Below are positions 6,769 through 60,785 of a DNA stretch of 64,000 nucleotides, one piece after another. The stretch is taken from NCBI GenBank assembly GCA_965263075.1, contig CBDHGI010000006.1, forward strand, positions 2,790,101-2,854,100, in the 5' to 3' direction. Source of the stretch: Chloroflexota bacterium. GTDB lineage: Bacteria; Chloroflexota; UBA11872. Every line of letters starts with the position of its first letter. Positions within the stretch are counted from its first letter, which is position 1. Made by a program: the position numbers and the translations under genes. The notes under the pieces were generated by a model, which searched no databases, was not told the origin of the DNA, and saw only the letters and a list, made by a program, of their open reading frames with translations.

Positions 6769-6892
6769 GGCGTGGTCCTTTCGACCGCGAATCACCCGGC
6801 TCCGACGTCCTGACGCTGATTGCCCTGCCAACGGTTGTCAAACGTCTGTTCCGTCCCTGGCGGAGGCGGACACGTGCATTGCCTGGGGACGG

Positions 6893-7447: not shown

Positions 7448-7504
7448 TGGCTTCCGCGGCCGGGCAGCCGAGGGGAATGGTTCATGTGACACATCGGCGC
7501 GGCG

Positions 7505-42531: not shown

Positions 42532-45117
42532 CTAGCCGGGGGCGCCGGCCGGGCTAGGGGTGGTCTCGACGATGGTCGGCTTGCCGTCCTGCAGGCGAAG
42601 TTCGAACTCGCGGCCCTCGGCTGCCTCCTGCATGACGTGGTCAGTGAGCGGCTGATCGACGTATTCGCCCACCAGTTGCGCGATCGGGCGAGCGCCGGCG
42701 TGCCGACCGAGGGTAACGGTGACGATGTAGTCGAGCGCGTCGGAGGTGATGTGGAGGCGGATGCCCAGATTCTCGGCGCGTAGGGTGGCGTCGGACAGCG
42801 CGCGTCTCGCGATCTCCCGGATTTCCTCCTCGGCCAGCGCGCGGAAGACGACCAGGCGGTCGATGCGGTTCAGGAATTCGCCGGGTAATTGCTTGCGGGC
42901 GTACTCGCGGATGCGGGCTTCGTAAGCAGTATGGCGCCGGGCCGACTCCGAGGTCGGTTCGAAACCGATGGAGGGTCCGGTGACCTGGTCGACGCCCAGG
43001 TTCGAGGTCAGCACGACGATGGTGTTGCGGAAGTCGACGTGGCGGCCGTTGGCGTCCGTGAGCAGGCCGTCTTCCATGATCTGCAGCAGAACATGCAACG
43101 TTCGGGGGTGGGCTTTCTCCACGTCGTCGAAGAGGACGACGGAGTAGGGGTTGCGGCGAACGGCCTCGGTGAGCCCGCCGGCTTCGTCGAACCCGACGTA
43201 GCCCGGCGGGGAGCCGATCAGCCGCGAGATGCTGTGGTACTCCGACATCTCCGACATGTCGACCCGCACCAGGTTTTCGTCGGTGCCGCTCACGAATTGG
43301 GCCAGGGCCTTGGCGGTTTCGGTTTTGCCGACGCCTGATTCGCCCAGGAAAAGGAACGATCCGATGGGGCGGCGTGAATCGCGCATGCCGGCGAGGGCGC
43401 GGCGTAGGGCGCGACCAAGTTCGGTTAGGACGTCGTCCTGGCCGACGACGCGTTTCCGCAGGTCGTCTTCCATGTGCAGGAAGCGGTCGGAGTCGTTCGC
43501 GGCCAGCGTGGGTAGCGGCACGCCGATCCAGGCGGACAGGACCTCGGCGATCTCGTGGGGTGTGATGACCGGACGATCTGTTCCGACTTCGGCCTGCCAG
43601 GCGTCGCGCTCGTTGCGAAGTTCGTCGCGGAGTTCATCGGCGACTTGCGCGCGCACCGGGCGTGGGGCTGCGGTGGGGTTCGGGGACGCAGCGGGGATCT
43701 GGGGTTCGGCCGTCACGCGTTCGGCGGGCGGTTGGGCGTCGGCCGTCGTCGGCTCGTCGGGCGCTTCGGGCGCGGCCTCGATTTGGGCGTCCAAGGATTT
43801 GATCCGGCGCTGAAGCTCGATGATGCGGGCCGGCGGCGTCTCGCGCCGCACCTTGGCCCGAGCGGAGGCTTCATCCATCAGGTCGATGGCTTTGTCGGGG
43901 AGCTGGCGGGAGGTCACGTAGCGGCGCGACAGATTCACAGTGGCGTCCACGGCGTCGTCGGTGACCTCGACCGCGTGATAGGACTCGTAGACAGGGCGCA
44001 GGGCTTTCAGGATTTCGATGGCGTCGTCGTCGCTCGGTTCATCCACGTCGATGGGTTGGAAGCGGCGGTTGAGGCTCTTGTCGTTGGCGATGTAGCGGCG
44101 GTATTCGCGCCAGGTGGTGGCGCCGATGACCTGCACTTCGCCGCGGGCCAGGTGGCCCTTGAGCAGGTTGGCGGCGTCCAACGACCCGGCCGCGCCGCCA
44201 GCGCCGATCACGGTGTGCAGTTCGTCGATGAAGAGAATGACGTCGCCGCTCTTGCGGACCTCGGCGATGAGTTGCTGGACGCGTTCCTCGAACTCGCCGC
44301 GGTACTTCGCGCCGGCGATCATGCCGGGGAGGCTGAGGGAGATTAGGCGCTTGTTCACGAGTTCGTCAGGAACGTCGCCCTTGACGATACGGTGCGCGAG
44401 GCCCTCGGCGATGGCCGTCTTGCCGACACCCGCGTCGCCTACCAGCACCGGGTTGTTCTTGGAGCGGCGCAGCAGGACTTCTATGGCGCGGTCCATCTCA
44501 ACCTGGCGGCCGATGACGGGGTCCAGGTCGCCGGTGCGGGCGGCGTTGGTGAAGTCGCTGCCGTATTCGGCCAGCATGCTGCGGGGCTTGCTGCGACGTC
44601 CGCGCCCTCGCCAACGTCCGCGGCGGCGGCGGCCGCGGCCCGGCGATCCGGGTTGGTAGGCGGCTTCGACGCGACGACGGAGCGGTCGGAACTCGATTCC
44701 GGCCGCGGCCAGCGCTCCCGAGGTCAGACGACCGGCGTTGGCCAGCGCGCCGAGCAACAGGTGCTCGGTGCCGATGAAGCGGACGCCCATGCGTTCGGCT
44801 TCCAGGGCGGCGGAGCGCAGCACGTTGCGGCCCTGCGCGGAGAGTGGGCGCCGGCCCTCGTCCCGCGCGTAGCCCGGGGGCAGGGTGTCGACGACGGTCT
44901 CGCGCAGCGGCTCCAACTCGATGCCGGCATCGCGCAGAACACGCGCAGCGGCGGTCTGCGGCGACTCCAGGATGGCCAGGAGGACGTGGCCGGGACCGAC
45001 GGCGTCGTGCCCGAGCCGAGCGGCTTGAAGCTCGGCGTGCTGGAGCACGCGACGGCCGCGGCCGGTGAGGCGGCGGATGTACTCGACTGGGGCGTATTCG
45101 TCGGGTTCGCGTTCCAC
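42532..45117 (-). CDS. clpC: AAA+ chaperone, Clp ATPase ClpC-like (two Clp_N repeats, two AAA modules)
   Basis: 861 aa. Walker A sites GDAGVGKT and GESGVGKT. Short middle domain (ClpC/ClpA-like rather than the long ClpB coiled coil). Confidence 0.88.
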   Translation of the reverse strand: MEREPDEYAPVEYIRRLTGRGRRVLQHAELQAARLGHDAVGPGHVLLAILESPQTAAARVLRDAGIELEPLRETVVDTLPPGYARDEGRRPLSAQGRNVLRSAALEAERMGVRFIGTEHLLLGALANAGRLTSGALAAAGIEFRPLRRRVEAAYQPGSPGRGRRRRGRWRGRGRRSKPRSMLAEYGSDFTNAARTGDLDPVIGRQVEMDRAIEVLLRRSKNNPVLVGDAGVGKTAIAEGLAHRIVKGDVPDELVNKRLISLSLPGMIAGAKYRGEFEERVQQLIAEVRKSGDVILFIDELHTVIGAGGAAGSLDAANLLKGHLARGEVQVIGATTWREYRRYIANDKSLNRRFQPIDVDEPSDDDAIEILKALRPVYESYHAVEVTDDAVDATVNLSRRYVTSRQLPDKAIDLMDEASARAKVRRETPPARIIELQRRIKSLDAQIEAAPEAPDEPTTADAQPPAERVTAEPQIPAASPNPTAAPRPVRAQVADELRDELRNERDAWQAEVGTDRPVITPHEIAEVLSAWIGVPLPTLAANDSDRFLHMEDDLRKRVVGQDDVLTELGRALRRALAGMRDSRRPIGSFLFLGESGVGKTETAKALAQFVSGTDENLVRVDMSEMSEYHSISRLIGSPPGYVGFDEAGGLTEAVRRNPYSVVLFDDVEKAHPRTLHVLLQIMEDGLLTDANGRHVDFRNTIVVLTSNLGVDQVTGPSIGFEPTSESARRHTAYEARIREYARKQLPGEFLNRIDRLVVFRALAEEEIREIARRALSDATLRAENLGIRLHITSDALDYIVTVTLGRHAGARPIAQLVGEYVDQPLTDHVMQEAAEGREFELRLQDGKPTIVETTPSPAGAPG

Positions 45118-45331: not shown

Positions 45332-45463
45332 GAGATTGGCCGTCACTCCGGCTCCGAGGGCTTGTCGATCCCTGCAAGTGTAGACGGGCGGGGCGGTGGG
45401 GTGCTTGCTGGGGCTGGCGATGGGTATAGACCGGAGCGGCGCAATCGGGGGTCTCGCGCGCAA

Positions 45464-45487
45464 TAAGAGTTTTTTCCAAAAAACTCT
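45464..45487. repeat. AT-rich perfect palindrome AAGAGTTTTTT-CC-AAAAAACTCTT in a GC-rich background
   Basis: 11-bp arms and a 2-nt centre, seen directly. Lies about 350 bp upstream of the clpC start. Confidence 0.6.
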
Positions 45488-45734
45488 TGAGGCGCGGCGG
45501 GGCGTCTTTTGGCTGAAGCGGGGACGCGCCGGGCCACGCCCGGCGACGGACGGACCGGGGTGTGGCACGGGAGGGCAGCAGGGCGCGGCGGGGCGAGGTC
45601 TTGCCAGGGCGATGTGGCGAGACCTGGGCGGGATGCCGGGCGGCTCGCACCGGCACGGCAACCGGCGGTCGCGGGAGTCGGACGAAGCTGAGGGCGGGTG
45701 CCGGGCGGCGGGAATTGGGTGGGGGTAAAGGGGG

Positions 45735-45802
45735 AGCTATCTCTCGCCAGCCCGCCCCCTCTGGGGGCGGGCTGGCGAGAGATAGCTTGGGCCGAATTTT
45801 TT
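45735..45802 (+). repeat. Perfect 25-bp-stem hairpin (loop TCT) followed 9 nt downstream by T6
   Basis: Left arm AGCTATCTCTCGCCAGCCCGCCCCC (45735..45759). Right arm is its exact reverse complement (45763..45787). TTTTTT at 45797..45802. Terminator-like or a REP-type structural element. Confidence 0.55.
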
Positions 45803-46135
45803 GGCGGGTTGGCGAGGAAGGTTGGGGCTGTGAGGGGACGGCAGGACGGCGCGAGGGACGCTGGGTGCGCGGACGTGGCGAGGGGTTGGGGTGGGGGCGT
45901 CTCGAGCGGAAGAGACTGGTCTGAGACCGGCCGAGACGCAAGGTGAGGAACAGGCGGGGGCGCTCGGTTGCGAAGGTGGCGAGCAGTCGGAGGAGGCGGG
46001 TGAGCATGGAGGGTCCGGGGGAGGGCGTGAGATACGGCCTCTCTAGTGTATACTAAATGAATACGACAGGCAAGGCTGACGGGGGTAGTGGGGGCAATTC
46101 GGAGCGATAGTGGGCTCGGGATGGTGGGGAGGTCG

Positions 46136-46296
46136 GGGCGTGGTTCGACAGGCTCACCAGGGACGCTGGGTGCGCTGGGATTGTTGGGTGCCGCTGGGCC
46201 CCCTCCTTCGGCAGGCTCAGGGCAGGTTCTCCGGGGACGCCGGGATGTGGTTCGACTCGGCCCTCCGAAGACTGCGGGCCGGCTCACCATGAACGG
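46136..46296. repeat. REP-like modular GC-rich repeat, copy A
   Basis: Contains modules CCTTCGGCAGGCTCAGGGCAGG, TTCTCCGGGGACGCCGGGATG, TGGTTCGACTCGGCC and GGCTCACCATGAACGG. The same modules recur in copies B, C and D. Confidence 0.6.
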
Positions 46297-46346
46297 TAGG
46301 GGACGGGGCACGGAGGTCGGGAGGCGGGGGTTGGGCGCGGCTTGGG

Positions 46347-46494
46347 ATGTGTTCAGTCGGTCGGGGCAATGTGTTCAGTTTCGGGGCCAATGTGTCCAGT
46401 TTTCGGGCCAATGTGTCCAGTTCTTGGCCGAATGTGTTCAGTTTCAAGGGGGATGTGTTCACTTTGGCGGGCGATGTGTCCAGTTTTTGGCGGG
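46347..46494. repeat. Tandem array of seven 21-22-bp direct repeats (core ATGTGT(T/C)CAGTT), iteron-like
   Basis: Core motif starts at 46347, 46369, 46390, 46411, 46432, 46453 and 46474, i.e. a 21-bp period (two helical turns). Noncoding context. Confidence 0.75.
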
Positions 46495-46535
46495 GCGCTC
46501 TGGTTGGGGATGGGGCGCGGACGGAAGGCGAGATT

Positions 46536-46606
46536 CCTCCTTCGGCAAGCTCAGGACAGGCCTCGACGGGCTCAGGGCAGGTTCTCCGAGGACGCCGGGA
46601 TGACGG
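46536..46606. repeat. REP-like modular repeat, copy B
   Basis: CCTCCTTCGGCAAGCTCAGGACAGG...GGGCAGGTTCTCCGAGGACGCCGGGATGACGGG. Confidence 0.6.
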
Positions 46607-46729
46607 GGGAGGTGGCACGTGATTGGTGGGTGGTGGGGAGTGGCTGGTGACGGGGGCGGGGGTTGGGCTGGGTGGGATCGGAGGGCGAATTGAGGCTGGG
46701 GATGGCGGGGGCTGGCAATGACGTCGATG

Positions 46730-46760
46730 CCTGCAACGCAATCAGTAAATGCGTTGCAGG
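46730..46760. promoter_or_regulatory. 11-bp inverted repeat CCTGCAACGCA-N9-TGCGTTGCAGG upstream of hsdM; candidate operator or structural site
   Basis: Perfect arms with an AT-rich 9-nt spacer (ATCAGTAAA). A flanking imperfect direct repeat GATGC(C/A)(T/G)GCAACGC. About 165 bp upstream of the hsdM ATG. Confidence 0.4.
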
Positions 46761-46923
46761 CGATGCAGGCAACGCTGGCAAGGATGGCGAGCTCGGGACG
46801 CTTGCGTGAACGGTGCGGCTGGCAGGGGTTGGGCGCGGGGAGTGGGTCGGTTTGACCTGGGTGCGGTAGCTTGCGGGCCGGACATAGGTGGCGAGATACA
46901 CGCACAGCAGCGGTGAGGGGCGG

Positions 46924-49017
46924 ATGAACGCGGGGACGCATGGGGAGTTGGCGGGCTTTGTCTGGAGCATTTGCAACCTGTTGCGGGGGCCGTATAAGCG
47001 GAACGAGTACCGGAAGGTGATTCTTCCGCTGACGGTGTTGCGGCGATTCGACTGCGTGCTGGCGGAGACCAAGGACGCGGTCCTGGCGGAGAACGAGAAG
47101 TACGGCGGCGAGGCCAGTTCCCAACTGCTGCAGGCCGCTTCAGGATTCCGCTTCTACAACGTCTCGGAGTTGGACTTCGAGCGGCTGCTGGACGACCCGA
47201 ACCTGATTGCGTCGAACCTGACCGGTTACATCAACCGATTCTCGGCCAACGTGCGCGAGATCTTCGAGCGATTCGGTTTCGAGGCACAGATCGCGAAGAT
47301 GGACGAGAAAAACCTGCTGTTCCAGGTCGTGCAGGCGTTTGCGCGGGTCGACCTGTCGCCCGAGCGTGTCGACAACATGCAGATGGGCTACGTGTTCGAG
47401 GAATTGATCCGGATAGGGGCAGAGCAGGCGAACGAAGAGGCGGGGGAGCACTTCACGCCGCGTGAGGTCATTCGGCTGATGGTGAGCTTGCTGCTGTCGC
47501 ATGAACCCGACCTAGCCAAGTCACACGTGGTGAAAACGATTTACGACCCGGCGTGTGGTACGGGCGGGATGTTGTCGGTTTCCGAGGACTTTCTGAGGGA
47601 GCACAACAGCACCGCGAATCCGTTTCTCTTCGGGCAGGACCACAATGACGAGGTCTGGGCGGTCTGCGCCTCGGACATGCTGATCAAGGGCGAAAACGCC
47701 GAGAACATCGTCCTGGGCGACAGCTTCACGGCCGACGGGTATGCGCGCCGGTCCGACGGTCGGCGCTACACGTTCGACTACATGCTTGCGAATCCACCGT
47801 TTGGCGTTGAGTGGAAGCAACAGCGGCGTGAGATCGAACTGGAACGGGATTCACTGGGCTTCGACGGGCGATTCGGGGCGGGGCTGCCGCGGATCAATGA
47901 CGGGGCGTTGCTGTTCCTGCAGCACATGCTCTCGAAGATGCAGGCGCCTGAAGACGGCGGCAGCCGGATTGCGATCGTCTTCAACGGGTCTCCGTTGTTC
48001 ACGGGCGACGCGGGGAGCGGGGAGAGCGAAATCCGGCGGTGGATCATCGAGAACGACTGGCTGGAAGCCATCGTGGCGCTGCCGGATCAACTCTTCTACA
48101 ACACCGGGATCTCGACCTACATCTGGGTGCTAACCAACCGAAAGGAAGATCGCCGGCTGCGAAAGGTGCAACTGATCGACGGGCGGCAGTTTTTCGTGAA
48201 GATGCGCAGGAGCCTGGGCAACAAGCGCAACGAACTTTCCGCAGGCCAGATCGACGACCTGACGCGGATTCACGGCGATTTCCTGGACGGCGAGACGCGG
48301 GAACTGACGGATGAAGATCCAGTGACACATCAGCTGCGGACAAGGCCGCGCGTGGTGAGCAAGGTGTTTGCGAACGACGACTTTGGCTATCACAAGATCA
48401 CGGTCGAACGTCCGTTGCGGTTGAACTTCGCGGCGACGCCGGAGCGGATTGCGGGCATCGAGGATGAGCGGTCGTTTCAGAATCTGGCGCGGAGCCCGAA
48501 GCGAGCCGGTCCGGCGCACGATGAGGAAGTAGCTGAGGGTTGCAAGCGGCAAGAAGCGATTCGGATCCTGCTGACCTTTCTAGGAAAAGCAACCGGCGGC
48601 AAGGTGATACGAGACCGCGAAGAGCTGCGGATGGCTCTACGCGAATTGTGCAGCCATGCGGGCTTGCGGCTGTCGGCCGGGGAGCGAAAGGCAATCGAGT
48701 CGGCGCTGAGCGAGCGGGATCCGGACGCTGCCATCTGTCGCGGCAGCCGGGGCAAGATCGAGCCGGACACCGAGTTGCGCGACACAGAGACGGTGCCGCT
48801 GGGTGAGGACATCGACAACTACATGGCGCGGGAGGTGCTGCCGCACGTTCCGGACGCCTGGGTAGACGAGAGCAAGACGAAGGTCGGCTACGAGATACCG
48901 CTAAACCGGCACTTCTACGTCTACGAGCCGCCGCGCGCGCTCGACGAGATCAGGTGCGACTTGCAGCAGCTGGAACGGGGGATCGCGGGCCTGATCTCCG
49001 ATGTCGTGAGAAGCTGA
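46924..49017 (+). CDS. hsdM: Type I restriction-modification system, DNA methyltransferase subunit M (with about 200-aa C-terminal extension)
   Basis: Start MNAGTHGELAGFVWSICNLLRG (ATG 46924, preceded by GGTGAGGGG). HsdM N-terminal domain, AdoMet motif (DPACGTGGML) and catalytic NPPF (LANPPFG). Extra C-terminal region of about 200 aa. Confidence 0.9.
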   Translation: MNAGTHGELAGFVWSICNLLRGPYKRNEYRKVILPLTVLRRFDCVLAETKDAVLAENEKYGGEASSQLLQAASGFRFYNVSELDFERLLDDPNLIASNLTGYINRFSANVREIFERFGFEAQIAKMDEKNLLFQVVQAFARVDLSPERVDNMQMGYVFEELIRIGAEQANEEAGEHFTPREVIRLMVSLLLSHEPDLAKSHVVKTIYDPACGTGGMLSVSEDFLREHNSTANPFLFGQDHNDEVWAVCASDMLIKGENAENIVLGDSFTADGYARRSDGRRYTFDYMLANPPFGVEWKQQRREIELERDSLGFDGRFGAGLPRINDGALLFLQHMLSKMQAPEDGGSRIAIVFNGSPLFTGDAGSGESEIRRWIIENDWLEAIVALPDQLFYNTGISTYIWVLTNRKEDRRLRKVQLIDGRQFFVKMRRSLGNKRNELSAGQIDDLTRIHGDFLDGETRELTDEDPVTHQLRTRPRVVSKVFANDDFGYHKITVERPLRLNFAATPERIAGIEDERSFQNLARSPKRAGPAHDEEVAEGCKRQEAIRILLTFLGKATGGKVIRDREELRMALRELCSHAGLRLSAGERKAIESALSERDPDAAICRGSRGKIEPDTELRDTETVPLGEDIDNYMAREVLPHVPDAWVDESKTKVGYEIPLNRHFYVYEPPRALDEIRCDLQQLERGIAGLISDVVRS

Positions 49018-49066
49018 CGGCGTGACCAGGACGTACCGATCCGACGCGAATCGGGCCGCCTAATCC

Positions 49067-49267
49067 ATGCCGAAGGTGCGGGACGCGATCCGGATGGTGG
49101 AGCGCGACGGCTGGCACCATGTGACCACGCGAGGGAGCCACCGGCAGTTCCGCCACCCAGTCAAGCCGGGCAAGGTCACGATTCCGGGCAAACCGGGCGA
49201 CGACGTGGGGCCGAAGCTCTGGGCCAGTATCATGAAGCAGGCTGGCCTCGAGAGAGAACGTCGATGA
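49067..49267 (+). CDS. hicA: HicA-family toxin (mRNA interferase), type II TA
   Basis: 66 aa. ...VERDGWHHVTTRGSHRQFRHPVKPGKVTIPGKPGDDV..., the typical HicA/YcfA fold signature. Confidence 0.85.
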   Translation: MPKVRDAIRMVERDGWHHVTTRGSHRQFRHPVKPGKVTIPGKPGDDVGPKLWASIMKQAGLERERR

Positions 49268-49608
49268 AGCTCACGTACGCCGTCGTCTTCGAGCAGACGC
49301 CCAACAACTACGCGGCCTATGTGCCGGACGTCCCGGGCTGCGTCAGCACCGGCAAGAGCTGGGACGAGATGCTGGCGATGATCCGCGAGGCGCTGGCGTT
49401 CCACATCGAGACGATCCTGGAGGATGGGGAGCCGCTCCCCGAGCCGAGGATGTCTATCGACGAGGCCATCGCGAACCACAGCGAACCCATCGCCGAGGAC
49501 GTGCTCAACTCCTACCTGGAGTTCGGCGAGCCCGGCCCCACGATCTCGACCCGGTTTGAGATGGTTGAGATTGAGGTTCCCGCCCCGCAGGCTGTTCAGG
49601 TGGGCTGA
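49264..49608 (+). CDS. hicB: HicB-family antitoxin (UPF0150), type II TA
   Basis: 114 aa; overlaps the hicA stop (ATGA). MKLTYAVVFEQTPNNYAAYVPDVPGCVSTGKSWDEMLAMIREAL, the HicB N-terminal RNase-H-like fold signature. Confidence 0.8.
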   Translation: MKLTYAVVFEQTPNNYAAYVPDVPGCVSTGKSWDEMLAMIREALAFHIETILEDGEPLPEPRMSIDEAIANHSEPIAEDVLNSYLEFGEPGPTISTRFEMVEIEVPAPQAVQVG

Positions 49609-49702
49609 CGGACACTCGACGGGGAGCGTTGAGGTGGCCACGGGATCCGCCGACGCGCATCGATGTGACGCGGTCAAGACCGTGAGCGAGTCACGCACGA
49701 CC

Positions 49703-51073
49703 ATGCGCGCCTACCCTCACTACCGCGACTTCGGCGTCGAGTGGCTCGGTGAGGTGCCGGAACATTGGACCTCGGAACAGCTTGGACGCCTCGGCTCGTT
49801 CTCAAAGGGCAGCGGCGGCACGAAAGAAGACGAGGTCGAAGACGGAGTTCCCTGCGTTCGCTACGGGGACCTCTACACAGTGCACCAGTTCCACATCAAG
49901 GAGACCCGGGCAAACATCTCCGAGGACAGCGCAGCCAATTACACGGCAATCCGATACGGGGACCTCTTGTTTGCCGGGTCGGGTGAGACCCTTGAGGAAA
50001 TAGGCAAGTCAGCTTCCAATCTGGTTGGCGGCCCGGCGTATTGCGGCGGGGACGTGATCCTCTTTCGTCCGTCAATCGAGACTGAGGCCACTTTTCTTGG
50101 TTACGCCGCAGATTGCGCTCCTGCGGCTTACCAAAAGGCATGCATGGGGCGAGGCGTCACCGTCATGCACATCTACTCCAGCGAGCTCAAGTACATGGTC
50201 GTGCCGCTCCCACCCCTCGACGAGCAGCGCGCAATTGCCGCGTTTCTGGACCGGGAGACGGAGCGGATCGATGCGTTGGTGGAGAAGAAGCGGTTGTTGA
50301 TCGAGCGGTTGGAGGAGTACCGGACGGCGCTGATCACGCGCACGGTGACGCGGGGGCTGCCGCCCGAGGCGGCGCGCGCCGCCGGGCTGGACCCGTCGCC
50401 GCGGTTGAAGGCTTCGGGGGCGGAGTGGCTAGGGGTCGTTCCAGAGCATTGGGAGGTAAAGGCGCTGAAGTGGGAGACGCCTGTTCAACGTGGGGCTTCG
50501 CCGCGGCCAATTGACGACGAAGCCTATTTCGATAACGACGGCTCACACGCCTGGGTACGAATCGCCGATGTGACCGCAGCTGGTATGTATCTGAATCGCA
50601 CGACACAGCGGCTCTCTGAACTAGGAGTCTCCCTAAGCGTGCCGCTAGAGCCAGGGGAGCTTGTTTTGAGCATTGCTGGATCAGTGGGTAAGCCCTGTAT
50701 CACGAAGATCGATTGCTGCATTCACGACGGGTTCGTCTATTTCCCACAATGGACGGGGGACGTTCGGTACCTGTTCTATGTGTTTGCCTCAGGTGAGCCC
50801 TACAAGGGACTGGGGAAACTAGGCACCCAGCTGAACCTGAACACTGACACAGTCGGTTCAATCTCAGTAGCAATACCTCCAGTAGACGAGCAGGCAGCGA
50901 TTGCGGACTACTTGACCACTGAGAACGCCGAGATTGAGAGCTCGTTGGAGTCGGTCCGCGAAGCCGTCGAACGGCTACAGGAATTTCGGGCAGCCCTCAT
51001 CACCGCCGCCGTAACCGGCAAGATCGACGTGCGCGAAGCCGCGCAAGCGCCGGTCGCTGCAATGTTGGCGTAA
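49703..51073 (+). CDS. hsdS: Type I restriction-modification system specificity subunit S
   Basis: Start MRAYPHYRDFGVEWLGEVPEHW. Two target-recognition domains separated by conserved coiled-coil regions (LPPLDEQRAIAAFLDRETERID... and IPPVDEQAAIADYLTTENAEIE...). Confidence 0.9.
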   Translation: MRAYPHYRDFGVEWLGEVPEHWTSEQLGRLGSFSKGSGGTKEDEVEDGVPCVRYGDLYTVHQFHIKETRANISEDSAANYTAIRYGDLLFAGSGETLEEIGKSASNLVGGPAYCGGDVILFRPSIETEATFLGYAADCAPAAYQKACMGRGVTVMHIYSSELKYMVVPLPPLDEQRAIAAFLDRETERIDALVEKKRLLIERLEEYRTALITRTVTRGLPPEAARAAGLDPSPRLKASGAEWLGVVPEHWEVKALKWETPVQRGASPRPIDDEAYFDNDGSHAWVRIADVTAAGMYLNRTTQRLSELGVSLSVPLEPGELVLSIAGSVGKPCITKIDCCIHDGFVYFPQWTGDVRYLFYVFASGEPYKGLGKLGTQLNLNTDTVGSISVAIPPVDEQAAIADYLTTENAEIESSLESVREAVERLQEFRAALITAAVTGKIDVREAAQAPVAAMLA

Positions 51074-54000
51074 ATGACCAGCCAAACCAACGAGGCGGCC
51101 TTCGAGTCGACCGTTGAGGACATGCTGCTCGAGGGCGGCTGGAACTCAGGCAACCGGTTGGAATGGGACGCGGTGCAAGCTCTCTTTCCGGCGCGTGTCG
51201 TCGCGTTCTTGCAGGCGACGCAGCCCGAACAGTGGGCAGCGATGGCTGGATTGCACGGCGAGAAGCTGAAAGCGCGGATCGTGGACGCGCTGGCCAAGGA
51301 ACTGGTCCTGAAGGGCATGCTGGACGTGCTGCGCCACGGGTTCAAGTTCTACGGCAAGACGTTCCGGCTGGCCTATTTCAAACCGGCGCACGGGCTGAAC
51401 CCGGAGGCGCTGGCGCAGTTCGAGCGCAACGACCTGACGGTCACGCGGCAGGTTGCCTACAACCCGAACACCAACGAAACCTTGGACCTGGTGTTTGCGC
51501 TCAACGGCGTGCCGGTGGCCACGTGTGAGTTGAAGAACCCGATGACGGGTCAGTCCTGGAAGAGCGCGGTTCGGCAGTACAAGCAGGACCGTGACCCTAC
51601 CGCTCCAATCTTCAAATTCCAGAAGCGGGCGCTGGTGCACTTTGCCGCCGATCCCGACGAAGTTCACATGACGACGCGACTGGCCGGGGAGAAAACCCGA
51701 TTCCTGCCCTTCAACCGGGGGAGCCGGCCCGGCGAGATTCAATGCGGGGCGGGCAACCCGCCGCATGCTGCGGGGTACCGCACGGGTTACTTCTGGCAGG
51801 GGGTGCTGGAACGCGAGCGGTTCCTGGACATTCTCGGCTCCTACATGTTCGTGGAACGCCGCGACGAGAAGGTCGAGGACGCGAAGGGCGCACGAACGGT
51901 CAAGCGGGAGACGGTGATCTTTCCGCGCTATCACCAACTGGATTCAGTCGACCGCCTGGTGACGACCGCGGCAGCGGATGGTCCGGGACGCAACTACCTG
52001 ATTCAGCACTCAGCTGGGAGCGGCAAGACGAACAGCATCTCGTGGCTGTCGCACCGGCTGGCGAGCCTGCACGACGCCGACGAGCAGAAGATCTACCAGT
52101 GCGTGGTGGTGATCACAGACCGGCGCGTGCTTGACCGACAATTGCAAGACGCGATCTACCAGATCGAGCACGCGCAGGGCGTGGTGAAGGCGATCGATCA
52201 GGATTCCAAGCAGCTGGCGACCGCGCTGGTGGACGGGACGATGATCGTGATTACGACGCTGCAGAAGTTTCCGTTCGTGATGAAGGGTCTGCTGCGGATC
52301 GCGGGGGCCGACGAGCCGGACGCCGCGAGCGCGGCCGAGCGGGCGCAGGCCGAGTCCTGGAGCAAGGCAATTGCCGGGCGTCGATACGCAGTGATCGTGG
52401 ACGAGGCGCACTCCAGCCAGACGGGCGAGAGCGCGCGGGAAATGAAGGCGGTACTCGGGTCCAAGGCGCAGGCAGCCGAGGAGGAAGGGGACGAGGACTG
52501 GGAAGACGGGATCAATGCGGTGATCGAATCGCGCGGACCGCAGCCGAATCTCTCGTTCTTTGCGTTCACGGCGACACCCAAGGGGAAGACGTTAGAGGTG
52601 TTCGGGCGGCCGGGTCCCAGCGGCAAACCTGAGCCGTTCCACGTCTACAGCATGCGTCAGGCGATCGAGGAAGAGTTCATCCTGGACGTGCTGGGGCGGT
52701 ACACCGACTACGACACGTACTACCGGCTGGTGAAGCAGGCGGCGGAGGACCCGGAGTTTCCCAAGCGGCGGGCGGCCTCGGAGCTGGCGAAGTTCATGCA
52801 GCTGCACGAGTACAACCTGGCGCAGAAAGCCGAAGTGATCGTGGAGCACTTCCGCAACAACGTGCGGCACCAGATGGGCGGCAAGGCGAAGGCGATGGTG
52901 GTGACCTCGGGCCGGCTGCACGCGGTGCGCTACATGCAGGCCTTTCAGCGGTACATCGCCGAGAAGGAGTACGAGGACGTGCGGCCGCTGGTGGCCTTCA
53001 GCGGCACGGTGCGGGATCCGGACACGGGCGAGGAGTTCACCGAGCCGAGCATGAACTGGGACGGGGTGACGGGGAAGCCGATCAGCGAATCGGCGTTGCC
53101 GGGCCGGTTCGCCTCGCCGGACTACCAGATTCTGCTGGTGGCGGAGAAGTACCAGACCGGGTTCGACCAACCGTTGTTGCAGGCGATGTACGTGGACAAG
53201 CGGCTGGACGGGGTGCAGGCGGTACAGACGCTCTCACGGCTGAACCGTATGGCGCCGGGGAAGGAACCGCCGTTCGTGCTGGACTTCGTGAACGACCCGG
53301 AGGACATCCGCGACGCGTTCAAGCCGTACTTCGACCAGACGGAACTGCTGGACGAATCGGACCCGCACAAGCTGGAAGTGCTGAAGCACGAACTGGACCA
53401 GATGCAGGTTTACCACTGGGAAGAGGTGGAGGCGTTCGCGAGGGTGTTCTACCTGCCAGTGGCGAAGCAGCGGAAGCAGGATCACGCGCGGCTGGAAAAG
53501 GCGCTGCAGCCAGCGCGGGGCCGGTTCGGGGCGCTGGACGAGGAGGGCCAGACCGAGTTCCGCGACCGGCTAGCGGCGTTCGCGAACCTGTACGCGTTCC
53601 TGAGCCAGATCATTCCCTATGGCGACAGCGAGCATGAGCGGCTGTATTCGTTCGGGCGGGCGCTGCTGCCGTACCTGCAGGAGGACAGTGAGCGGGAACA
53701 GATTGACCTGGGGGACGACGTGGAGCTGGCGTATTACCGGCTGCAACAGGTGACTGAGGGGGCGATCAGCCTGGGCGAGGGTGAAGGCGCCTACGTGGTG
53801 AGCCCGACGGAGACCGGCACGGGCGACCCGGAGGAAGACAAGGCGCCGCTGTCGGAGATTATCGAGCGGCTGAACGAGCGGTTTGGGACGAACTTCACGG
53901 ACGCGGACCGGTTTTTCTTTGAGCAGGTGAAGGCGCAGGCGGTTCAGGACGAAACGGTGCGCGAGACGGCGCGGGCGAATCCGCTGGATAAGTTCAGCCT

Positions 54001-54172
54001 GGGGGTTCGGGATCAGATTTCTGATCTGATGATTGCGCGGATGAGTGAGAACGATTCGCTGGTGAAGCGGTACCTGGAGGAGACGGAGTTTCAAAATCTC
54101 GCGTATGAGGTGTTGGCGAAGGAGATATTTGCGGCGGTGCGGGGTGGTGAGGCGGGGGTGGCCGGCGGATAG
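51074..54172 (+). CDS. hsdR: Type I restriction-modification system endonuclease subunit R
   Basis: 1032 aa. ATG directly follows the hsdS stop. N-terminal nuclease domain, SF2 helicase motifs (QHSAGSGKT; DEAH-like VIVDEAHSSQ) and a C-terminal helical domain. Confidence 0.95.
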   Translation: MTSQTNEAAFESTVEDMLLEGGWNSGNRLEWDAVQALFPARVVAFLQATQPEQWAAMAGLHGEKLKARIVDALAKELVLKGMLDVLRHGFKFYGKTFRLAYFKPAHGLNPEALAQFERNDLTVTRQVAYNPNTNETLDLVFALNGVPVATCELKNPMTGQSWKSAVRQYKQDRDPTAPIFKFQKRALVHFAADPDEVHMTTRLAGEKTRFLPFNRGSRPGEIQCGAGNPPHAAGYRTGYFWQGVLERERFLDILGSYMFVERRDEKVEDAKGARTVKRETVIFPRYHQLDSVDRLVTTAAADGPGRNYLIQHSAGSGKTNSISWLSHRLASLHDADEQKIYQCVVVITDRRVLDRQLQDAIYQIEHAQGVVKAIDQDSKQLATALVDGTMIVITTLQKFPFVMKGLLRIAGADEPDAASAAERAQAESWSKAIAGRRYAVIVDEAHSSQTGESAREMKAVLGSKAQAAEEEGDEDWEDGINAVIESRGPQPNLSFFAFTATPKGKTLEVFGRPGPSGKPEPFHVYSMRQAIEEEFILDVLGRYTDYDTYYRLVKQAAEDPEFPKRRAASELAKFMQLHEYNLAQKAEVIVEHFRNNVRHQMGGKAKAMVVTSGRLHAVRYMQAFQRYIAEKEYEDVRPLVAFSGTVRDPDTGEEFTEPSMNWDGVTGKPISESALPGRFASPDYQILLVAEKYQTGFDQPLLQAMYVDKRLDGVQAVQTLSRLNRMAPGKEPPFVLDFVNDPEDIRDAFKPYFDQTELLDESDPHKLEVLKHELDQMQVYHWEEVEAFARVFYLPVAKQRKQDHARLEKALQPARGRFGALDEEGQTEFRDRLAAFANLYAFLSQIIPYGDSEHERLYSFGRALLPYLQEDSEREQIDLGDDVELAYYRLQQVTEGAISLGEGEGAYVVSPTETGTGDPEEDKAPLSEIIERLNERFGTNFTDADRFFFEQVKAQAVQDETVRETARANPLDKFSLGVRDQISDLMIARMSENDSLVKRYLEETEFQNLAYEVLAKEIFAAVRGGEAGVAGG

Positions 54173-54237
54173 GGCGCTGGCATTTCTGGGTTGACGGGGT
54201 GGCACGTCGCGCCGGGATCGTTTGGGTGCTGCTGGGT

Positions 54238-54465
54238 CCCCCTTCGGCCGGCCCAGGGCGGGTTCTCCGAGGGACTCCGGGGCGGCTCACCACGAACGGG
54301 GGGTGGGCTGGGGATGTGGTTCGACTCGGGCCGCCGAGGGACTCTGGCCCGGCCCTTCGGCAGGCTCAGGACAGGCTCACCACGAACGGATTGGGGAAGA
54401 CGAGCGGGTCGGAGACGCCGCCTCTACGGAAGTTGGGACCGCGGACGCCGGGATGACGGTAGTGC
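54238..54465. repeat. REP-like modular repeat, copy C (two tandem units)
   Basis: CCTTCGGCCGGCCCAGGGCGGGTTCTCCGAGGGACTCCGGGGCGGCTCACCACGAACGG...GGATGTGGTTCGACTCGGGCC...CCTTCGGCAGGCTCAGGACAGGCTCACCACGAACGG...GACGCCGGGATGACGG. Confidence 0.6.
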
Positions 54466-56200
54466 GCGGTATTCGATAAGGGCTGAGCGGCCGACGACGT
54501 CGAGGATACGGATCAGCGCCTCGTGTCCGTCGGAGTCTGTCAGGCGCAGCTCTTCGCCGGGGGTGAAGTGGACGGGTTGGGGCTGGCCGTGGTTGATCGC
54601 GATGTTGGAGGCGTAGAGATAGGTTCGGTCGCTGGTGTCGCGTATGGGATTGAGGCGGCCCTTGAGGGTGGGTAGGTGTCCGACCGCCTCGGGGAAGATG
54701 ACGCTGCCGCCATCCGGGAGGGGCTGCAGGTCGAGCGTGAGCGCGCCCAGGCTGGGCGTCCAGTCTCGCTCCAGGTGCGCCGCGTGTCGGGGAGCGGCGG
54801 CGAACACGGTCATTGGGAGGTGGGAGGTGGGAGGTGTATAGCTCGACCGCTGCCTCGCCGTCGTCGTTTGTGGTCGCACGTTTCCAGGTCTTGTTCGGGA
54901 ATAGCGCTAAGACGTCGGCGCCGGGCAAGGGCTGACCGGCAGACCGAACGGCAATGACGGCGCTGGCGGGGCTGCTTTCCTGGATTGCCGCAGGGATGGC
55001 GAGGCGGACTTCGGAGTCATCGATGACCTGGTATTCGGGCAGCTTGCCGCAGAGTTCGCGAGTTTCACGCCGGATGATGGGCACGCCGTCGCCGCGGCGT
55101 TCCATGAAGTACTGGTGGTCCTCCGACCCCTGAATTCCGCCAACCGGCAGGCGCGCCAATACGGAGGTCAACGCTTCGTTGCGTGTGACCTGGCGGGTCT
55201 CCATGCTTTCCTCGGTGAGGTTGTTGGGTAGCGAGCCGGGCGACTGAATCTCCAGACGGTCGTCGAACATCGAGAGGCGAATCTTGCTGCCGCGTATCGA
55301 GTAGTCGCGGTGCACGACGGCGTTGACGAGGGCCTCGAACAGCGCCCGGTGGCTGTACTGGGGAAGGTCAACGCGCCCCGGTTCCTTGCGGGCGGCGACC
55401 TGCATGTTGCGTAGGGCGAAGGCGACGGCCTGGGCGATCTGCCTATTCAGCGGGCCGCCGATTTCTTGCGCGTCGATCTGACCGGACGCACGGTCGTTTC
55501 CGCGATAGCGGGTGGCGGTAATCCCAGCGTTTGGCAGCCATTGCTGGGGGTCCGGCGTGCACAACAGCAGGCCGGCGACCGTGGCGCGCGGGATCCCAGC
55601 TTCGTCGCTGGCCAGGAGCGCCAGTCTGCCAAGCGCGGCCTCTGGTTCGGCGGCGCCTTCGGCGCTCAACAGAGGTCGCCAGAGGGACTCGTCCAAGGTG
55701 TTGAATCCGGTGTTTGGAATGGTCTGCTCGTCGAACGATGCGAATCGCGCCTGCCCGCGCCGCTGTGCCAAGCGCAGCCACTCGTCGCCGGTCATTCTTC
55801 GCTTTGTGCCGCCGACGCGGATGTATCGATGACCGGATCGCTCATGCGGCGAATCGCCCGCGGGAACATCGACGATTAACAACCGCTTGCCATCGGGGAG
55901 TTGCATGTGCTGGGTGCGGATGCGAACGGGCGGCTCGATGGCGTCGGAGCTGATTTCGACGACGTAATCGTCTAGCGAGCCAAGTCGCTCACGCGTCATG
56001 TCCTGCCCTTCGCCCTCATCGGTGACACCGCAGAGCAGGGTGCCGCCGTCCGCGTTGGCGAAGGCCGCGATCTCGTCGGCTATGTCGGCGCGGTCCGGGC
56101 TCCTGGGATGGTTGCCGGCGAAATCGACCTGTTTGAATTCCCAGGCGCTGTCCTCGCCCAACTGAAGCCGGCGGGTGATCTCTTCGTCGCTGTAGGTCAT
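54377..56200 (-). CDS. COG2865-type protein (AlbA_2 / 'divergent AAA' N-terminal domain + HATPase_c_4-like domain + beta-sandwich domain); C-terminal about 150 codons probably out of frame
   Basis: Start MTYSDEEITRRL (ATG 56200). AlbA_2-like N-terminus (WEFK...DEIAAFANADGGTLLCGV). HATPase_c_4-like region (ALFEALVNAVVHRDYS...IRLSMFDDRLEIQSPG). CarbopepD_reg-like segment (VIAVRSAGQPLPGADVLA...TTNDDGEAAVELY). After the SHLPPP site encoded by (TGGGAGG)x3 the frame continues as an Arg/Pro-rich low-complexity tail, while a protein-like 130-aa frame (MTVFAAAPRH...LIRILDVVGRSALIEY) continues in another frame. Confidence 0.6.
   Translation of the reverse strand: MTYSDEEITRRLQLGEDSAWEFKQVDFAGNHPRSPDRADIADEIAAFANADGGTLLCGVTDEGEGQDMTRERLGSLDDYVVEISSDAIEPPVRIRTQHMQLPDGKRLLIVDVPAGDSPHERSGHRYIRVGGTKRRMTGDEWLRLAQRRGQARFASFDEQTIPNTGFNTLDESLWRPLLSAEGAAEPEAALGRLALLASDEAGIPRATVAGLLLCTPDPQQWLPNAGITATRYRGNDRASGQIDAQEIGGPLNRQIAQAVAFALRNMQVAARKEPGRVDLPQYSHRALFEALVNAVVHRDYSIRGSKIRLSMFDDRLEIQSPGSLPNNLTEESMETRQVTRNEALTSVLARLPVGGIQGSEDHQYFMERRGDGVPIIRRETRELCGKLPEYQVIDDSEVRLAIPAAIQESSPASAVIAVRSAGQPLPGADVLALFPNKTWKRATTNDDGEAAVELYTSHLPPPNDRVRRRSPTRGAPGARLDAQPGRAHARPAAPPGWRQRHLPRGGRTPTHPQGPPQSHTRHQRPNLSLRLQHRDQPRPAPTRPLHPRRRAAPDRLRRTRGADPYPRRRRPLSPYRIPRTTVIPASAVPTSVEAASPTRSSSPIRSW
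54814..54834. repeat. Heptanucleotide tandem repeat (TGGGAGG)x3 inside a coding region at a frame junction
   Basis: Seen directly: TGGGAGGTGGGAGGTGGGAGG. Loss of one unit would fuse the upstream ORF in frame to the downstream 54424..54816 frame. Confidence 0.7.
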
Positions 56201-56249
56201 TGGTGGTTTGCAGTCTCCTCCCAAGCCATCCTATCCGTAGCCAGTTCTC

Positions 56250-56328
56250 CAGCCGCCGGGATGCTGGGGAGTGTTTCGTGGTTCGATCTGACCTTCTACG
56301 AGCTAAGGACGGGCTCACCACGAACGAG
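56250..56328. repeat. REP-like modular repeat, copy D
   Basis: GCCGCCGGGATGCTGGGG...TGGTTCGATCTGACCTTCTACGAGCTAAGGACGGGCTCACCACGAACG, the same modules as copies A-C. Confidence 0.5.
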
Positions 56329-56375
56329 GGTTGCTGGCCACGAGCGGAGGTGGCGCGCTGCGAGTGACGAATTGC

Positions 56376-56789
56376 TCACTGTGGCGGGTTGGCGAAGGGG
56401 TTGAGGGTGGGGATGCCGAAGTGCTGGAAGTCGCGGATGTTGCGGGTGACGACGGTTAGGCGGTGGACGGTGGCGACGGCGGCGATGAGGGCGTCCTGCA
56501 TGAGGGTGTCTGATTGGCGGTGCATGAGCTTGGCCCAGATCCGAAACGCGGGGGCGTCCACATCGAGCACTTCATAGGTCGCGAGTACGCGGTCGAGCCA
56601 CGATTCCAGGTGTTCCGCCTTGGCGGCGTCCTGCTGGCGGGTGACTTCGATACCGGCCTGGATCTCGCCGATCGTGACGGCTGACAGATAGAGGTGATCG
56701 GCCGGCACACGCTGAATCCACTCCAGTACGGCCGGGCTTGGCCGCGGGCGACGCAGTTCCGAGACGACGTTTGTATCGAGGAGGTACAC
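56376..56789 (-). CDS. vapC: PIN-domain toxin VapC (type II TA)
   Basis: 137 aa. MYLLDTNVVSELRRPRP... with the conserved acidic residues of a PIN domain (D5, E..., D..., ...TRN). Confidence 0.88.
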   Translation of the reverse strand: MYLLDTNVVSELRRPRPSPAVLEWIQRVPADHLYLSAVTIGEIQAGIEVTRQQDAAKAEHLESWLDRVLATYEVLDVDAPAFRIWAKLMHRQSDTLMQDALIAAVATVHRLTVVTRNIRDFQHFGIPTLNPFANPPQ

Positions 56790-56792
56790 GCG

Positions 56793-57053
56793 CTAGTTGA
56801 ATTGCGGGGCGGCACGGCGACGGAGGGGTCGACGCGGGGGTGTGAGAGCTTCGGTGCGCGGCTCGGGCGCGAGCAGCAACTCCTTGAGGTTGGGGCGCGT
56901 CATGCGCTCCAGCCGGCGCCACTGGTCAATCGGGACGAGCACCGCTGTCTCGACGCCGCGCTTTGTGACGATCTGCGGCCCTTCGGCGAGGCTGGTCTCA
57001 AGCAGTTCGCTGAAACGCGCCTTGGCCTCCTGCACTTGCCAGATGTTGCCCAT
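56793..57053 (-). CDS. Phd/YefM-family antitoxin (partner of VapC)
   Basis: 86 aa. MGNIWQVQEAKARFSELLETSLAEGPQIVTKRGVETAVLVPIDQWRRL, the Phd/YefM N-terminal fold. The stop lies 3 nt before the vapC start. Confidence 0.8.
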   Translation of the reverse strand: MGNIWQVQEAKARFSELLETSLAEGPQIVTKRGVETAVLVPIDQWRRLERMTRPNLKELLLAPEPRTEALTPPRRPLRRRAAPQFN

Positions 57054-57718: not shown

Positions 57719-58012
57719 GGCGAGAGTACGAATGACTTCAGGGTGCCGAATGGCCGCAGCGCTATCCGGGACGCCTCGACAGGAAGACCCCTCACCGATT
57801 GTCGGCGGGGACGCCGACATCTGCCTCTCCCCCAGGAGAGGGAAAGAACGCCGCCCCGGAGCTAGCTTGGCGACTGACAGCGTCGCTTTCCCGCAAGGAT
57901 CGGAAGGAAGAGGCGTGTCTCCTCAGCGTTCATGGCTCCGCACGCAGATGCTCGCCTACCAGGGTCGCGAGCAACGACGGCGGTTCAGTTCAGGAGAGGG
58001 GAGTCGAGCGGC

Positions 58013-60490: not shown

Positions 60491-60785
60491 CCTGTATGGA
60501 CTGGCTGCGACGCTGGTGGACTGTTAGCGGCGCTTTGATACTCGTTCGCGGGGGGCCAGATTCTCCAGCCCATGGTTGTCCAACCCGACGAATCTCCAAT
60601 TCGCAGGGAACGAACAGCGCTCGCGCGACGTATCTATTCCTGAGGGCCTTCTGGAAGCGGTTGACGTTGCTGCACCAAGGACTCATGGCGACGCCGGTAG
60701 TCTTGAAGGTGAGCCACGCCGATGTAGCGTTGATGCGTCACTTCCCGGCTGCCTCCGACAGTTTGACCAGGCGAAGGAGCATGTG

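Follow-up and report, generated by a model that had tools for sequence, protein, structure and literature searches.

We analyzed a 64,000-nt stretch of a Chloroflexota genome (contig CBDHGI010000006.1, positions 2,790,101 to 2,854,100 of the forward strand; the window), in which clpC on one side and PIN-Phd, MoaC, and gyrA on the other enclose a type I restriction-modification (RM) operon and a COG2865 gene, and in which the DNA between these genes carries clusters of short GC-rich repeats. Genes were assigned from Pfam and from the public gene calls of the identical contig (Table 1). The repeats fill three gaps, 46008-46887, 54173-54376, and 56225-56375, which are the three junctions from core to RM, from RM to COG2865, and from COG2865 back to core. 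The initial annotation had placed a modular family resembling repetitive extragenic palindromic (REP) sequences at 46136..46296, 46536..46606, 54238..54465, and 56250..56328. These intervals are right, all four of its modules are present there as described, and the family is borne out as an interspersed one; what had been counted as at least four copies is really a set of clusters in three intergenic gaps, with about 16 instances of units of 21 to 50 nt.

In mismatch-tolerant pattern searches of the 64 kb, module matches were confined to 46140-46606, 54206-54462, and 56249-56327, all on the + strand, and pattern searches of the rest of the window gave no module copy. Compared with dinucleotide shuffles, in which 0.00 to 0.22 matches were expected, the module A pattern CCTTCGGCAGGCTCAGGRCAGG was found at 4 sites with no more than 3 mismatches (0.00 expected), the module B pattern TTCTCCGAGGACGCCGGGATG at 2 sites (0.01 expected), and GGCTCACCACGAACGG at 4 sites (0.11 expected), while TGGTTCGACTCGGCC had 2 true sites plus one chance-like match at 19804. 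An independent repeat finder returned the same families (D3, D5, and D6).

Judged from their sequences, the modules are pieces of one unit type, in which a conserved 13-nt loop, TTCGRCARGCTCA (more generally TTCG-R-C-A-R-GCTCA; search pattern TTCGRCNRGCTCA), is closed by a short, variable stem ranging from CCC/GGG and GTGG/CCAC up to CCGTTCGTGG/CCACGAACGG. A unit is about 24 nt long, each module being a unit or half unit, and the stem is followed by a short tail (CGAACGG, CAGGCT, or GGATGAC). The third and fourth modules of the initial annotation are the two halves of unit U, GTGG-TTCGACAGGCTCA-CCAC-GAACGG; module A follows the plan CCC-TTCGGCAGGCTCA-GGG-CAGGCT, and a third common form reads CCC-TTCGACAAGCTCA-GGG-CGAACGG. 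More than 500 loop instances were present across the fetched loci. The stem was examined in 240 nonidentical loops whose flanks were unconstrained by the search patterns, with 3' flanks shuffled among instances as the control. At least three contiguous Watson-Crick pairs closed the core in 117 of the 240 loops, compared with 48.7 +/- 5.1 (maximum, 65) after shuffling, and 27 different stems were represented, the longest being GTTCGTGG/CCACGAAC. Position -3 of module A covaries with R, T going with A and C with G (Fisher p = 9e-7). Since closing pairs exceed the control and position -3 covaries, it is the loop that is conserved and the stem that varies.

A hairpin subtype contains an inner helix, CGGSSC/GSSCCG. 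In an alignment of 13 distinct copies from several genomes, five of the six inner pairs show changes in both partners, and pairing holds in 94.6% of the cells (81.5% in shuffles and 32 to 54% in slid controls). The pairing is nearly all Watson-Crick, with a single G-T among the paired cells and 7 of 78 cells unpaired. Module B belongs to a hairpin that is undisrupted in the sister locus L262 (TCCCGGC-CGGGGAC-GCCGGGA-TGACG), while in the window an inserted module A displaces its 5' arm. The mutually complementary CTTCGG and CCGAAG segments in which stems had initially been suspected fared differently: when secondary structure was predicted, cluster folding that included this pairing was not better than that of shuffles, and the real hairpins are instead the short stems that close the conserved loop and the covarying CGGSSC/GSSCCG stem.

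The units are nested in one another. Other units of about 24 nt, mostly inverted, sit in the middle of the loops of units or within small GC palindromes. Elements bounded by GGTTCGAC and CTCACCACGAACG accordingly come in length classes of 24, 47 to 48, and 71 nt, and the inserts between GTGGTTCGAC and GGCTCACC in 126 metagenome elements peak at 24 to 25 nt (69 of 126) and at 49 to 50 nt (9 elements). Among the inserts of single-unit size that were classified, 53 were reversed copies of module A, 11 were forward copies, and 17 were other GC hairpins. The window offers examples in the hairpin type at 46247-46296, the doubly nested hairpin-plus-A element at 54316-54389, and the degenerate module A inside the unit at 56274-56327. 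The three sites and loci L262, L263, L039, L101, and L268 each combine units U, A, and B, the hairpin, a spacer module (M4), and a GTAG hairpin in a different way. Thus the earlier description of modules that recombine in different orders is right in that the combinations differ, but they arise as nested insertions and not by simple reordering.

Table 1. Repeat units of the three intergenic clusters and neighboring genes in the window
Feature	Position	Strand	Remarks
clpC	42532-45117	-	Then a small open reading frame (ORF), then a 1.5-kb noncoding stretch
Unit U, GTGG-TTCGACAGGCTCA-CCAg...	46140..46165	+	Intact 13-nt loop, GTGG/CCA(C) stem; ~24 nt absent at orthologous L262 site
G-rich spacer module M4, GGGTGCGCTGGGATTGTTGGGTGCCGCTGGGCCCC	46166..46202	+	End is 5' arm of small GC palindrome; M4 also in L039, L101, L262, and L263
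Module A, CTCC-TTCGGCAGGCTCA-GGGCAGG	46203..46226	+	Sits centrally in palindrome TCCCGG/CCGGGGA (slash, insertion point)
Module B, TTCTCCGGGGACGCCGGGATG	46227..46247	+	On - strand, loop plus 3' arm of CGTC/TGTC-tag-type hairpin
Split unit C-hairpin-D, GTGG-TTCGAC-T-(CGGCCC-TCCGAAGACTGC-GGGCCG)-GCTCA-CCAT-GAACGG	46247..46296	+	Inner hairpin (in parentheses), 46258-46281
Two A-type modules in tandem, CCTCC-TTCGGCAAGCTCA-GGACAGG then CCTCGACGGGCTCAGGGCAGG	46536..46581	+	Repeat family D6
Module B with full tail, GCCGGGATGACGG	46582..46606	+	
hsdM	46888-49017		Then HicA/HicB, hsdS, and hsdR (end, 54172)
Spacer module M4, second copy	54206..54241	+	
Degenerate module A, CCCCC-TTCGGCCGGCCCA-GGGCGGG	54238..54262	+	
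Hairpin loop, 3' arm, and D, TTCTCCGAGGGACTCC-GGGGCG-GCTCACCACGAACGG	54263..54299	+	Without 5' arm; repeat family D3
Doubly nested C-hairpin-A-D, 71-74 nt	54316..54389	+	Module A at 54351-54373 inside
COG2865 gene (Schlafen/AlbA_2)	54377-56224	-	Convergent
Separate REP-like hairpin with GTAG foot, GTAG-AGGCGG-CGTCTCCGAC-CCGCTC	54396..54429	-	Common to L262, L063, and L101; weak in DNA fold
Module B tail, GCGGACGCCGGGATGACGGTAG	54441..54462	+	Kept in L262 and L263
Degenerate B tail, CCAGCCGCCGGGATGCTGG	56249..56267	+	
Unit with 7- to 8-bp outer stem, TTTCGTGG/CCACGAA	56274..56327	+	Loop interrupted by degenerate A-like insert CTGACCTTCTACGAGCTAAGGACG; repeat family D3; outer stem in both minimum free energy and centroid folds; comparable element adjoins PIN in L268
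PIN	56376-56789	-	
Phd	56793-57053	-	Followed by MoaC
gyrA	57932-60490		

Sister loci were found on long contigs through ClpC homologues (85 to 94% identity), fetched, and aligned to the window. The 23-nt module A at 54351-54373 is cleanly absent from L262, where about 36 nt to the left and about 110 nt to the right are essentially identical and the junction shows 3 to 4 nt of ambiguity or microhomology (GGC/GGCT at 54351/54374). At the palindrome center at 46203, there are no A-type copies in L262, one in the window, and two in L263. L262 likewise lacks unit U (at 46140) and, at 46247, the whole of C-hairpin-D together with about 45 nt. The flanks around gained or lost units are about 90 to 100% identical between strains. 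These clean indels of single units indicate that units turn over rapidly, by gain or by loss.

The interval between clpC and PIN-Phd (45400-56375; loci L262 to L268) is a defense-island hotspot. Both flanks, clpC on one side and COG2865/PIN-Phd-MoaC-gyrA on the other, are shared by relatives, and the contents between them differ: the window carries COG2865 with type I hsdMSR and HicAB; L262 has COG2865 with a type IIG methylase/Eco57I enzyme and unknown genes; L263 has COG2865 with three IS110 copies; L264 and L265 have COG2865 with an AAA_21/DUF4276 pair and an MmeI-type enzyme; and in L268 the only cargo is one IS110, COG2865 and a restriction system both being absent. The lineages of L264/L265 and of L267 are free of modules. 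When synteny was checked, the clusters did coincide, as had been proposed, with the junctions of this variable region, and the breakpoints relative to L262 and L263 (about 46789, 54307, and 54439) lie within or beside arrays.

Outside this hotspot, the 20-nt core of module A was found, exact, in more than 120 genome contigs of at least 10 phyla among the matches listed, compared with an estimated chance expectation of roughly 2 to 8 contigs. The carriers include Chloroflexota/Dehalococcoidia, Acidobacteriota, Nitrospinota/Nitrospirota, Planctomycetota/Verrucomicrobiota, Bacteroidota, Gemmatimonadota, Proteobacteria/Desulfobacterota, Latescibacterota, Binatia, and Patescibacteria. Its usual form elsewhere is CCC-core-CTCT with unrelated flanks, and the carrier loci span 37 to 76% GC. 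The 20-mer also occurs in 20 viral contigs; the 481-nt cluster gave no blastn match among 72,556 plasmids.

Gene context was scored for 328 clusters in 260 loci. Clusters lie between convergent genes more often than between divergent genes (44 versus 23), and in tandem-gene contexts the units run with the genes in 37 cases and against them in 44. The lack of an orientation rule relative to genes and the excess of convergent over divergent contexts suggest an element that acts at the DNA level and not a cis-acting RNA. In 64 of 89 loci, forward units are found on the G-rich strand (p = 4e-5). The GC skew of the window's + strand is positive in every 4-kb bin irrespective of gene orientation, and all module units of the window and of the sister strains are on that same strand. 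As a separate observation, the + strand of the intergenic DNA at 46008-46887 and 54173-54376 is strongly G-rich (GC skew up to +0.21), with many GGG and GGGG runs (e.g., GGTGGGTGGTGGGGAG at 46628-46643) that are potential G-quadruplex tracts on the strand that carries the repeat units.

Several known repeat systems resemble the family in part. Like the REP sequences, bacterial interspersed mosaic elements (BIMEs), and REPINs of Escherichia coli and Pseudomonas, which are mobilized by the HUH-Y1 protein RAYT (TnpA-REP), it consists of extragenic hairpin units of 20 to 40 nt in many copies, clustered as mosaics of several unit types that are often in inverted pairs, commoner between convergent genes, prone to give spurious ORFs, and mostly without an adjoining transposase. 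The window units are short, extragenic, and multicopy, and they form mosaics in which several repeat types vary in order and number between strains, as in BIMEs and the Neisseria intergenic mosaic elements (NIMEs). With regard to the stable stem-loop of REPs, closing complementarity is above the control and the inner helix covaries, yet most stems have 3 to 4 bp and the clusters do not fold better than shuffles. Moreover, REPs conserve the stem and a 5' GT[AG]G foot, whereas the window family conserves the loop, varies the stem, and nests its units in one another's loops; REP families are largely lineage specific, whereas the core described here is common to at least 10 phyla; and no RAYT was found for the window family among the ORFs of the fetched loci and the window. 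An unpaired foot is absent from the A, F, and B units; unit U starts with GTGG, but these bases are paired with CCAC, and a GTAG foot occurs only in the separate minus-strand element at 54396-54429.

The CGTC/TGTC-tagged REP superfamily (Di Nocera et al. 2013, PMC3733652), which includes the dRS3/NIME mosaics of Neisseria and the RPEs of Rickettsia, has no dedicated transposase, is widespread across phyla, and in Neisseria is interleaved with other repeats in mosaic intergenic regions. Module B resembles it on the - strand, where CCGTCA-TCCCGGC... gives a CGTC tag followed by a GC stem (CCGTCATCCCGGC... at 46582-46606 and 54441-54462). In contrast, the A, U, and F units are untagged, and the four families of the superfamily have 8- to 9-bp stems starting with A-T pairs and 4- to 5-nt loops, while the intact L262 hairpin has a 7-bp stem and a 7-nt loop. 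The strings TTCGAC, GGCTCA, TGAGCC, and GTCGAA are absent from the supplements of PMC3733652. Closer in some respects are the GTAG-23 REPs of Thermomicrobium roseum, also a member of the Chloroflexota, which are inserted in CCGSSCC(n3-4)GGSSCGG palindromes (PMC3733652). Compared by their published description, they share with the window family the phylum, the clustering, and insertion at the center of small GC palindromes, whose consensus is nearly that of the CGGSSC/GSSCCG stems and of the TCCCGG/CCGGGA site in the window; they differ in being GTAG tagged, a foot that only the 54396-54429 element has in the window. Finally, the REP-like repeats linked to class 3 TnpA-Y1 (Quentin et al. 2018, PMC6006769) include a weakly structured repeat of about 26 nt, without GTAG, that hardly differs between Legionella, Planctomycetes, and Acidobacteria and reaches about 600 copies in Solibacter. 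It sets a precedent for a miniature repeat that spans phyla and is linked to an HUH enzyme, but its sequence (CnGAGCCGCGACCGTAAGGGAGCG) differs, and its enzyme gene is known and bordered by repeats, whereas none is known for the window family.

Two further classes were rejected. An integron attC or cassette array, with its RYYYAAC...GTTRRRY boxes and co-oriented cassettes, does not fit units that have GTTCG in place of GTTRRRY, lack an integrase at the cluster, and lie among large genes of mixed orientation. Miniature inverted-repeat transposable elements, which measure about 100 to 400 bp and carry a parent insertion sequence's terminal inverted repeats and a target-site duplication, do not fit units of 23 to 26 nt that have no terminal inverted repeats and only 3 to 4 nt of junction ambiguity; the ends of the relatives' IS110 copies are unrelated.

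Taken together, we lean toward the view that the clusters are a mosaic of miniature noncoding hairpin repeats, similar to the REPs and BIMEs of E. coli or to NIME/dRS3 of Neisseria, that would be mobile in trans and passive at the junctions where they are found. A conserved loop with variable stems, nesting, single-unit indels, independence from gene orientation, and cross-phylum identity all fit a miniature mobile repeat. Precedents exist in the palindrome-inserted REPs of T. roseum, the transposase-less CGTC superfamily, and the cross-phylum class 3 Y1 repeats. The units would have moved in trans through single-stranded DNA (ssDNA): an enzyme would recognize the loop in an ssDNA hairpin and cut and join in the middle of the loop. 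This could be an HUH/Y1-type or comparable nicking-joining activity, encoded elsewhere, that works on the lagging-strand template, and horizontal spread of the mobilizing system would account for a near-identical core in many phyla. The strand bias fits elements handled as ssDNA on the lagging-strand template, though it is suggestive only; a bias of this kind is known for ssDNA transposition (PMC6006769). At the present locus, the repeats would not drive island acquisition but would accumulate in the only sizeable dispensable noncoding DNA, the hotspot junctions, where they would add short homologies and spurious ORFs.

We also propose, more tentatively, a specific form of this explanation that we regard as possible but rather doubtful, namely, that the units are previously unrecognized miniature mobile DNA whose identity lies in the hairpin loop TTCGRCARGCTCA and not in the stem or ends and which is cut in mid-loop by a putative, horizontally spreading ssDNA enzyme. 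Such a system would account for the nesting of units in one another's loops and for the recurrence of the same 13- to 20-nt core from Chloroflexota to Acidobacteriota, Nitrospinota, Planctomycetota, Bacteroidota, and Patescibacteria, whatever the GC content of the genome.

Several results weigh against mobility in trans. No mobilizing enzyme was found, and no gene family was enriched beside the 328 clusters in the 260 loci; for the genes beside the densest arrays, Pfam gave only large housekeeping families, with no recombinase or transposase enriched. A jackhmmer search with E. coli RayT found no homologue in the fetched loci (about 2 Mb) and the window, which together gave 13,776 ORFs. Whole clusters fold no better than shuffles as ssDNA on either strand (z, +0.05 to +1.8), and stems often have only 3 to 4 bp, so a protein or negative supercoiling would be required for the hairpin to form. 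Gene orientation accounts for part of the G-strand bias, which is 56:18 where genes run the same way and only 33:22 where they run opposite. Furthermore, the indels between strains might reflect gene conversion among dispersed composite copies, or precise deletion, instead of transposition.

The last point leads to the main rival, spread and shuffling without a dedicated enzyme through template switching at quasi-palindromes, slippage during replication, and gene conversion among dispersed copies, which we consider unlikely. Such processes would suit the roughly 5:1 excess of inverted over direct inserts, the microhomology at the 54351/54374 junction, the tandem arrays with periods of 23 nt (16 copies in L031) and 47 nt (L006), the composite C-hairpin-A-D copies elsewhere (L039) that are possible conversion donors, and the lack of a transposase in the searches just described. 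However, while they account for local indels, they leave unexplained a 13- to 20-nt core in at least 10 phyla, its unchanged persistence in genomes of 37 to 46% GC, and the first arrival of units at new loci with unrelated flanks.

Quite improbable, in our judgment, is the suggestion that the repeats are recombination sites, either att- or attC-like or providing homology for cassette exchange, that brought in the RM, COG2865, and toxin-antitoxin units, although three clusters at three junctions, in one orientation throughout and with breakpoints at the arrays, is what such sites would look like. The role in acquisition or recombination that the initial annotation had considered is not supported: L264 and L265 share the hotspot with different defense cargo and have no module in 22 kb. 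There is no integrase or recombinase next to the clusters in the window, the IS110 copies of L263 are not bordered by modules (flanks of three examined), and elsewhere the units lie between ordinary housekeeping genes; a GTTRRRY attC signature is lacking. For cargo exchange, the long core-gene homology on either side suffices. Use of the repeats as targets by IS110 was rejected on the same three L263 flanks.

A function in RNA, as terminators or insulators, mRNA-stabilizing hairpins, or a small RNA family, seems slightly less probable still. The short hairpins with covarying stems and the excess of clusters between convergent genes would agree with it, and REPs elsewhere stabilize mRNA (PMC3733652). 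Nevertheless, Rfam gave no relevant match for the whole window at the gathering score or for the three gaps at E<=1, and folding energies are not better than those of shuffles on either strand. The nearly exclusive Watson-Crick pairing of the inner helix, with its single G-T and 7 unpaired cells of 78, and an orientation independent of the flanking genes also speak against RNA. A promoter and terminator scan showed no enrichment: there were 2 terminator-like sites against 8.5 expected from shuffles, one in the 21-nt tandem array of the 46008-46887 gap and the other inside hsdM, with none in the listed modules, so the transcription insulators that had been suggested are not borne out. Readings as tRNA T-arms, UUCG tetraloops, hammerhead-like RNAs, or attC sites were dropped, as the units lack the flanking pairings or core motifs that these would require. 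Chance similarity of GC-rich low-complexity DNA, to which a window of 66.5% GC with G-rich intergenic DNA might seem prone and which the initial annotation had named as the alternative, has a negligible probability, given shuffle expectations near zero, an exact 20-mer in more than 120 unrelated contigs, AT-rich genomes included, and module-sized indels between strains.

The units also affect annotation. As had been predicted, they are miscalled as proteins: a public gene caller made a 164-aa ORF over the L262 cluster, reading ...VWFDTALRGLRAGSPRTG...LARLTTNG. Pfam contained no family for the spurious ORFs or for a synthetic concatenate of the peptides, and full-text literature searches with the DNA strings and peptides of the units returned unrelated papers only, while those on REP topics led to no papers beyond the two cited above; the family therefore appears to be undescribed in the searchable literature. 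The encoded peptides are a familiar nuisance among the "hypothetical proteins" of environmental bacteria. The units yield thousands of such false proteins with recurring peptides (e.g., ...SPRTG and ...LTTNG in ORFs of the window and L262), and recognition of the family would allow them to be masked.

We regard the family as moderately interesting, mainly for its phylum-spanning conserved loop, its self-nesting, and its missing mobilizer. A repeat of about 24 nt with a core identical across phyla, GC-rich in AT-rich genomes, self-nesting, and strain variable implies a widespread, unassigned DNA-processing activity, and the clean filled and empty sites are concrete substrates for finding it. 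The repeats also mark the junctions of a defense hotspot whose cargo in sister strains is a restriction system (type I, type IIG, or MmeI), an ATPase/DUF4276 pair, or IS110 copies; they can thus help to locate plastic regions, although they probably do not cause the plasticity.

Several other features of the locus were observed. The IS110 element is 1187 bp long and lies at 1389-2575, 6662-7848, and 7851-9035 in L263, the latter two in direct tandem 2 nt apart, and also at about 7550-8800 in L268. Its insertion sites read ...CTCAC(T)..., and an apparently empty target like CTCACGCCCTCCCCC is present at about 46015-46035 (- strand) of the window. Between the two clusters upstream of hsdM, a 21-nt tandem repeat at 46347-46486 (consensus ATGTGTTCAGTTTCGGGGCCA; 6.6 copies, each spanning two helical turns) looks, from its sequence, like an array of protein-binding sites; with one array in L263 and two in L262, it belongs to the conserved clpC-side flank and not to the RM cargo. 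A perfect 12-bp hairpin at 46729-46761, GCCTGCAACGCA-ATCAGTAAA-TGCGTTGCAGGC, precedes the left cargo breakpoint (about 46789) by about 28 nt, is kept in L262 with a compensatory change (GCCAGC...GCTGGC), and may be a real attachment or regulatory site of the hotspot.

In the noncoding stretch upstream of clpC, an inverted repeat with perfect 25-nt arms around a 3-nt loop (AGCTATCTCTCGCCAGCCCGCCCCC/GGGGGCGGGCTGGCGAGAGATAGCT; 45735-45787) is 96 to 100% conserved in L262 and L263 and has only subthreshold, chance-level Rfam matches. Upstream of the small ORF and clpC, an AT-rich palindrome, AAGAGTTTTTTCCAAAAAACTCTT (45465-45488), is about 80 to 84% conserved over about 60 to 80 nt in L264, L039, and L080, where the repeats are absent or different, and could serve the clpC region as an operator or terminator. 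The HicA toxin/HicB antitoxin pair at 49066-49704, between hsdM and hsdS, occupies an unusual position inside a type I operon, and the public gene calls start hsdS at 49634 (479 aa) and not at 49424 (549 aa). Upstream of gyrA, a short hairpin module at 57780-57846, CTGCCTCTCCCCCAGGAGAGGGAAAG, matches an L101 segment at 82% over 73 nt and appears to be another widely shared intergenic repeat type. Downstream of gyrA, the DUF4349/DUF11 (CLIPPER) genes at 60576-62486 and 62798-63793 are paralogues, about 70% identical over about 450 nt (61229-61775 versus 63274-63820), and represent a local tandem gene duplication.

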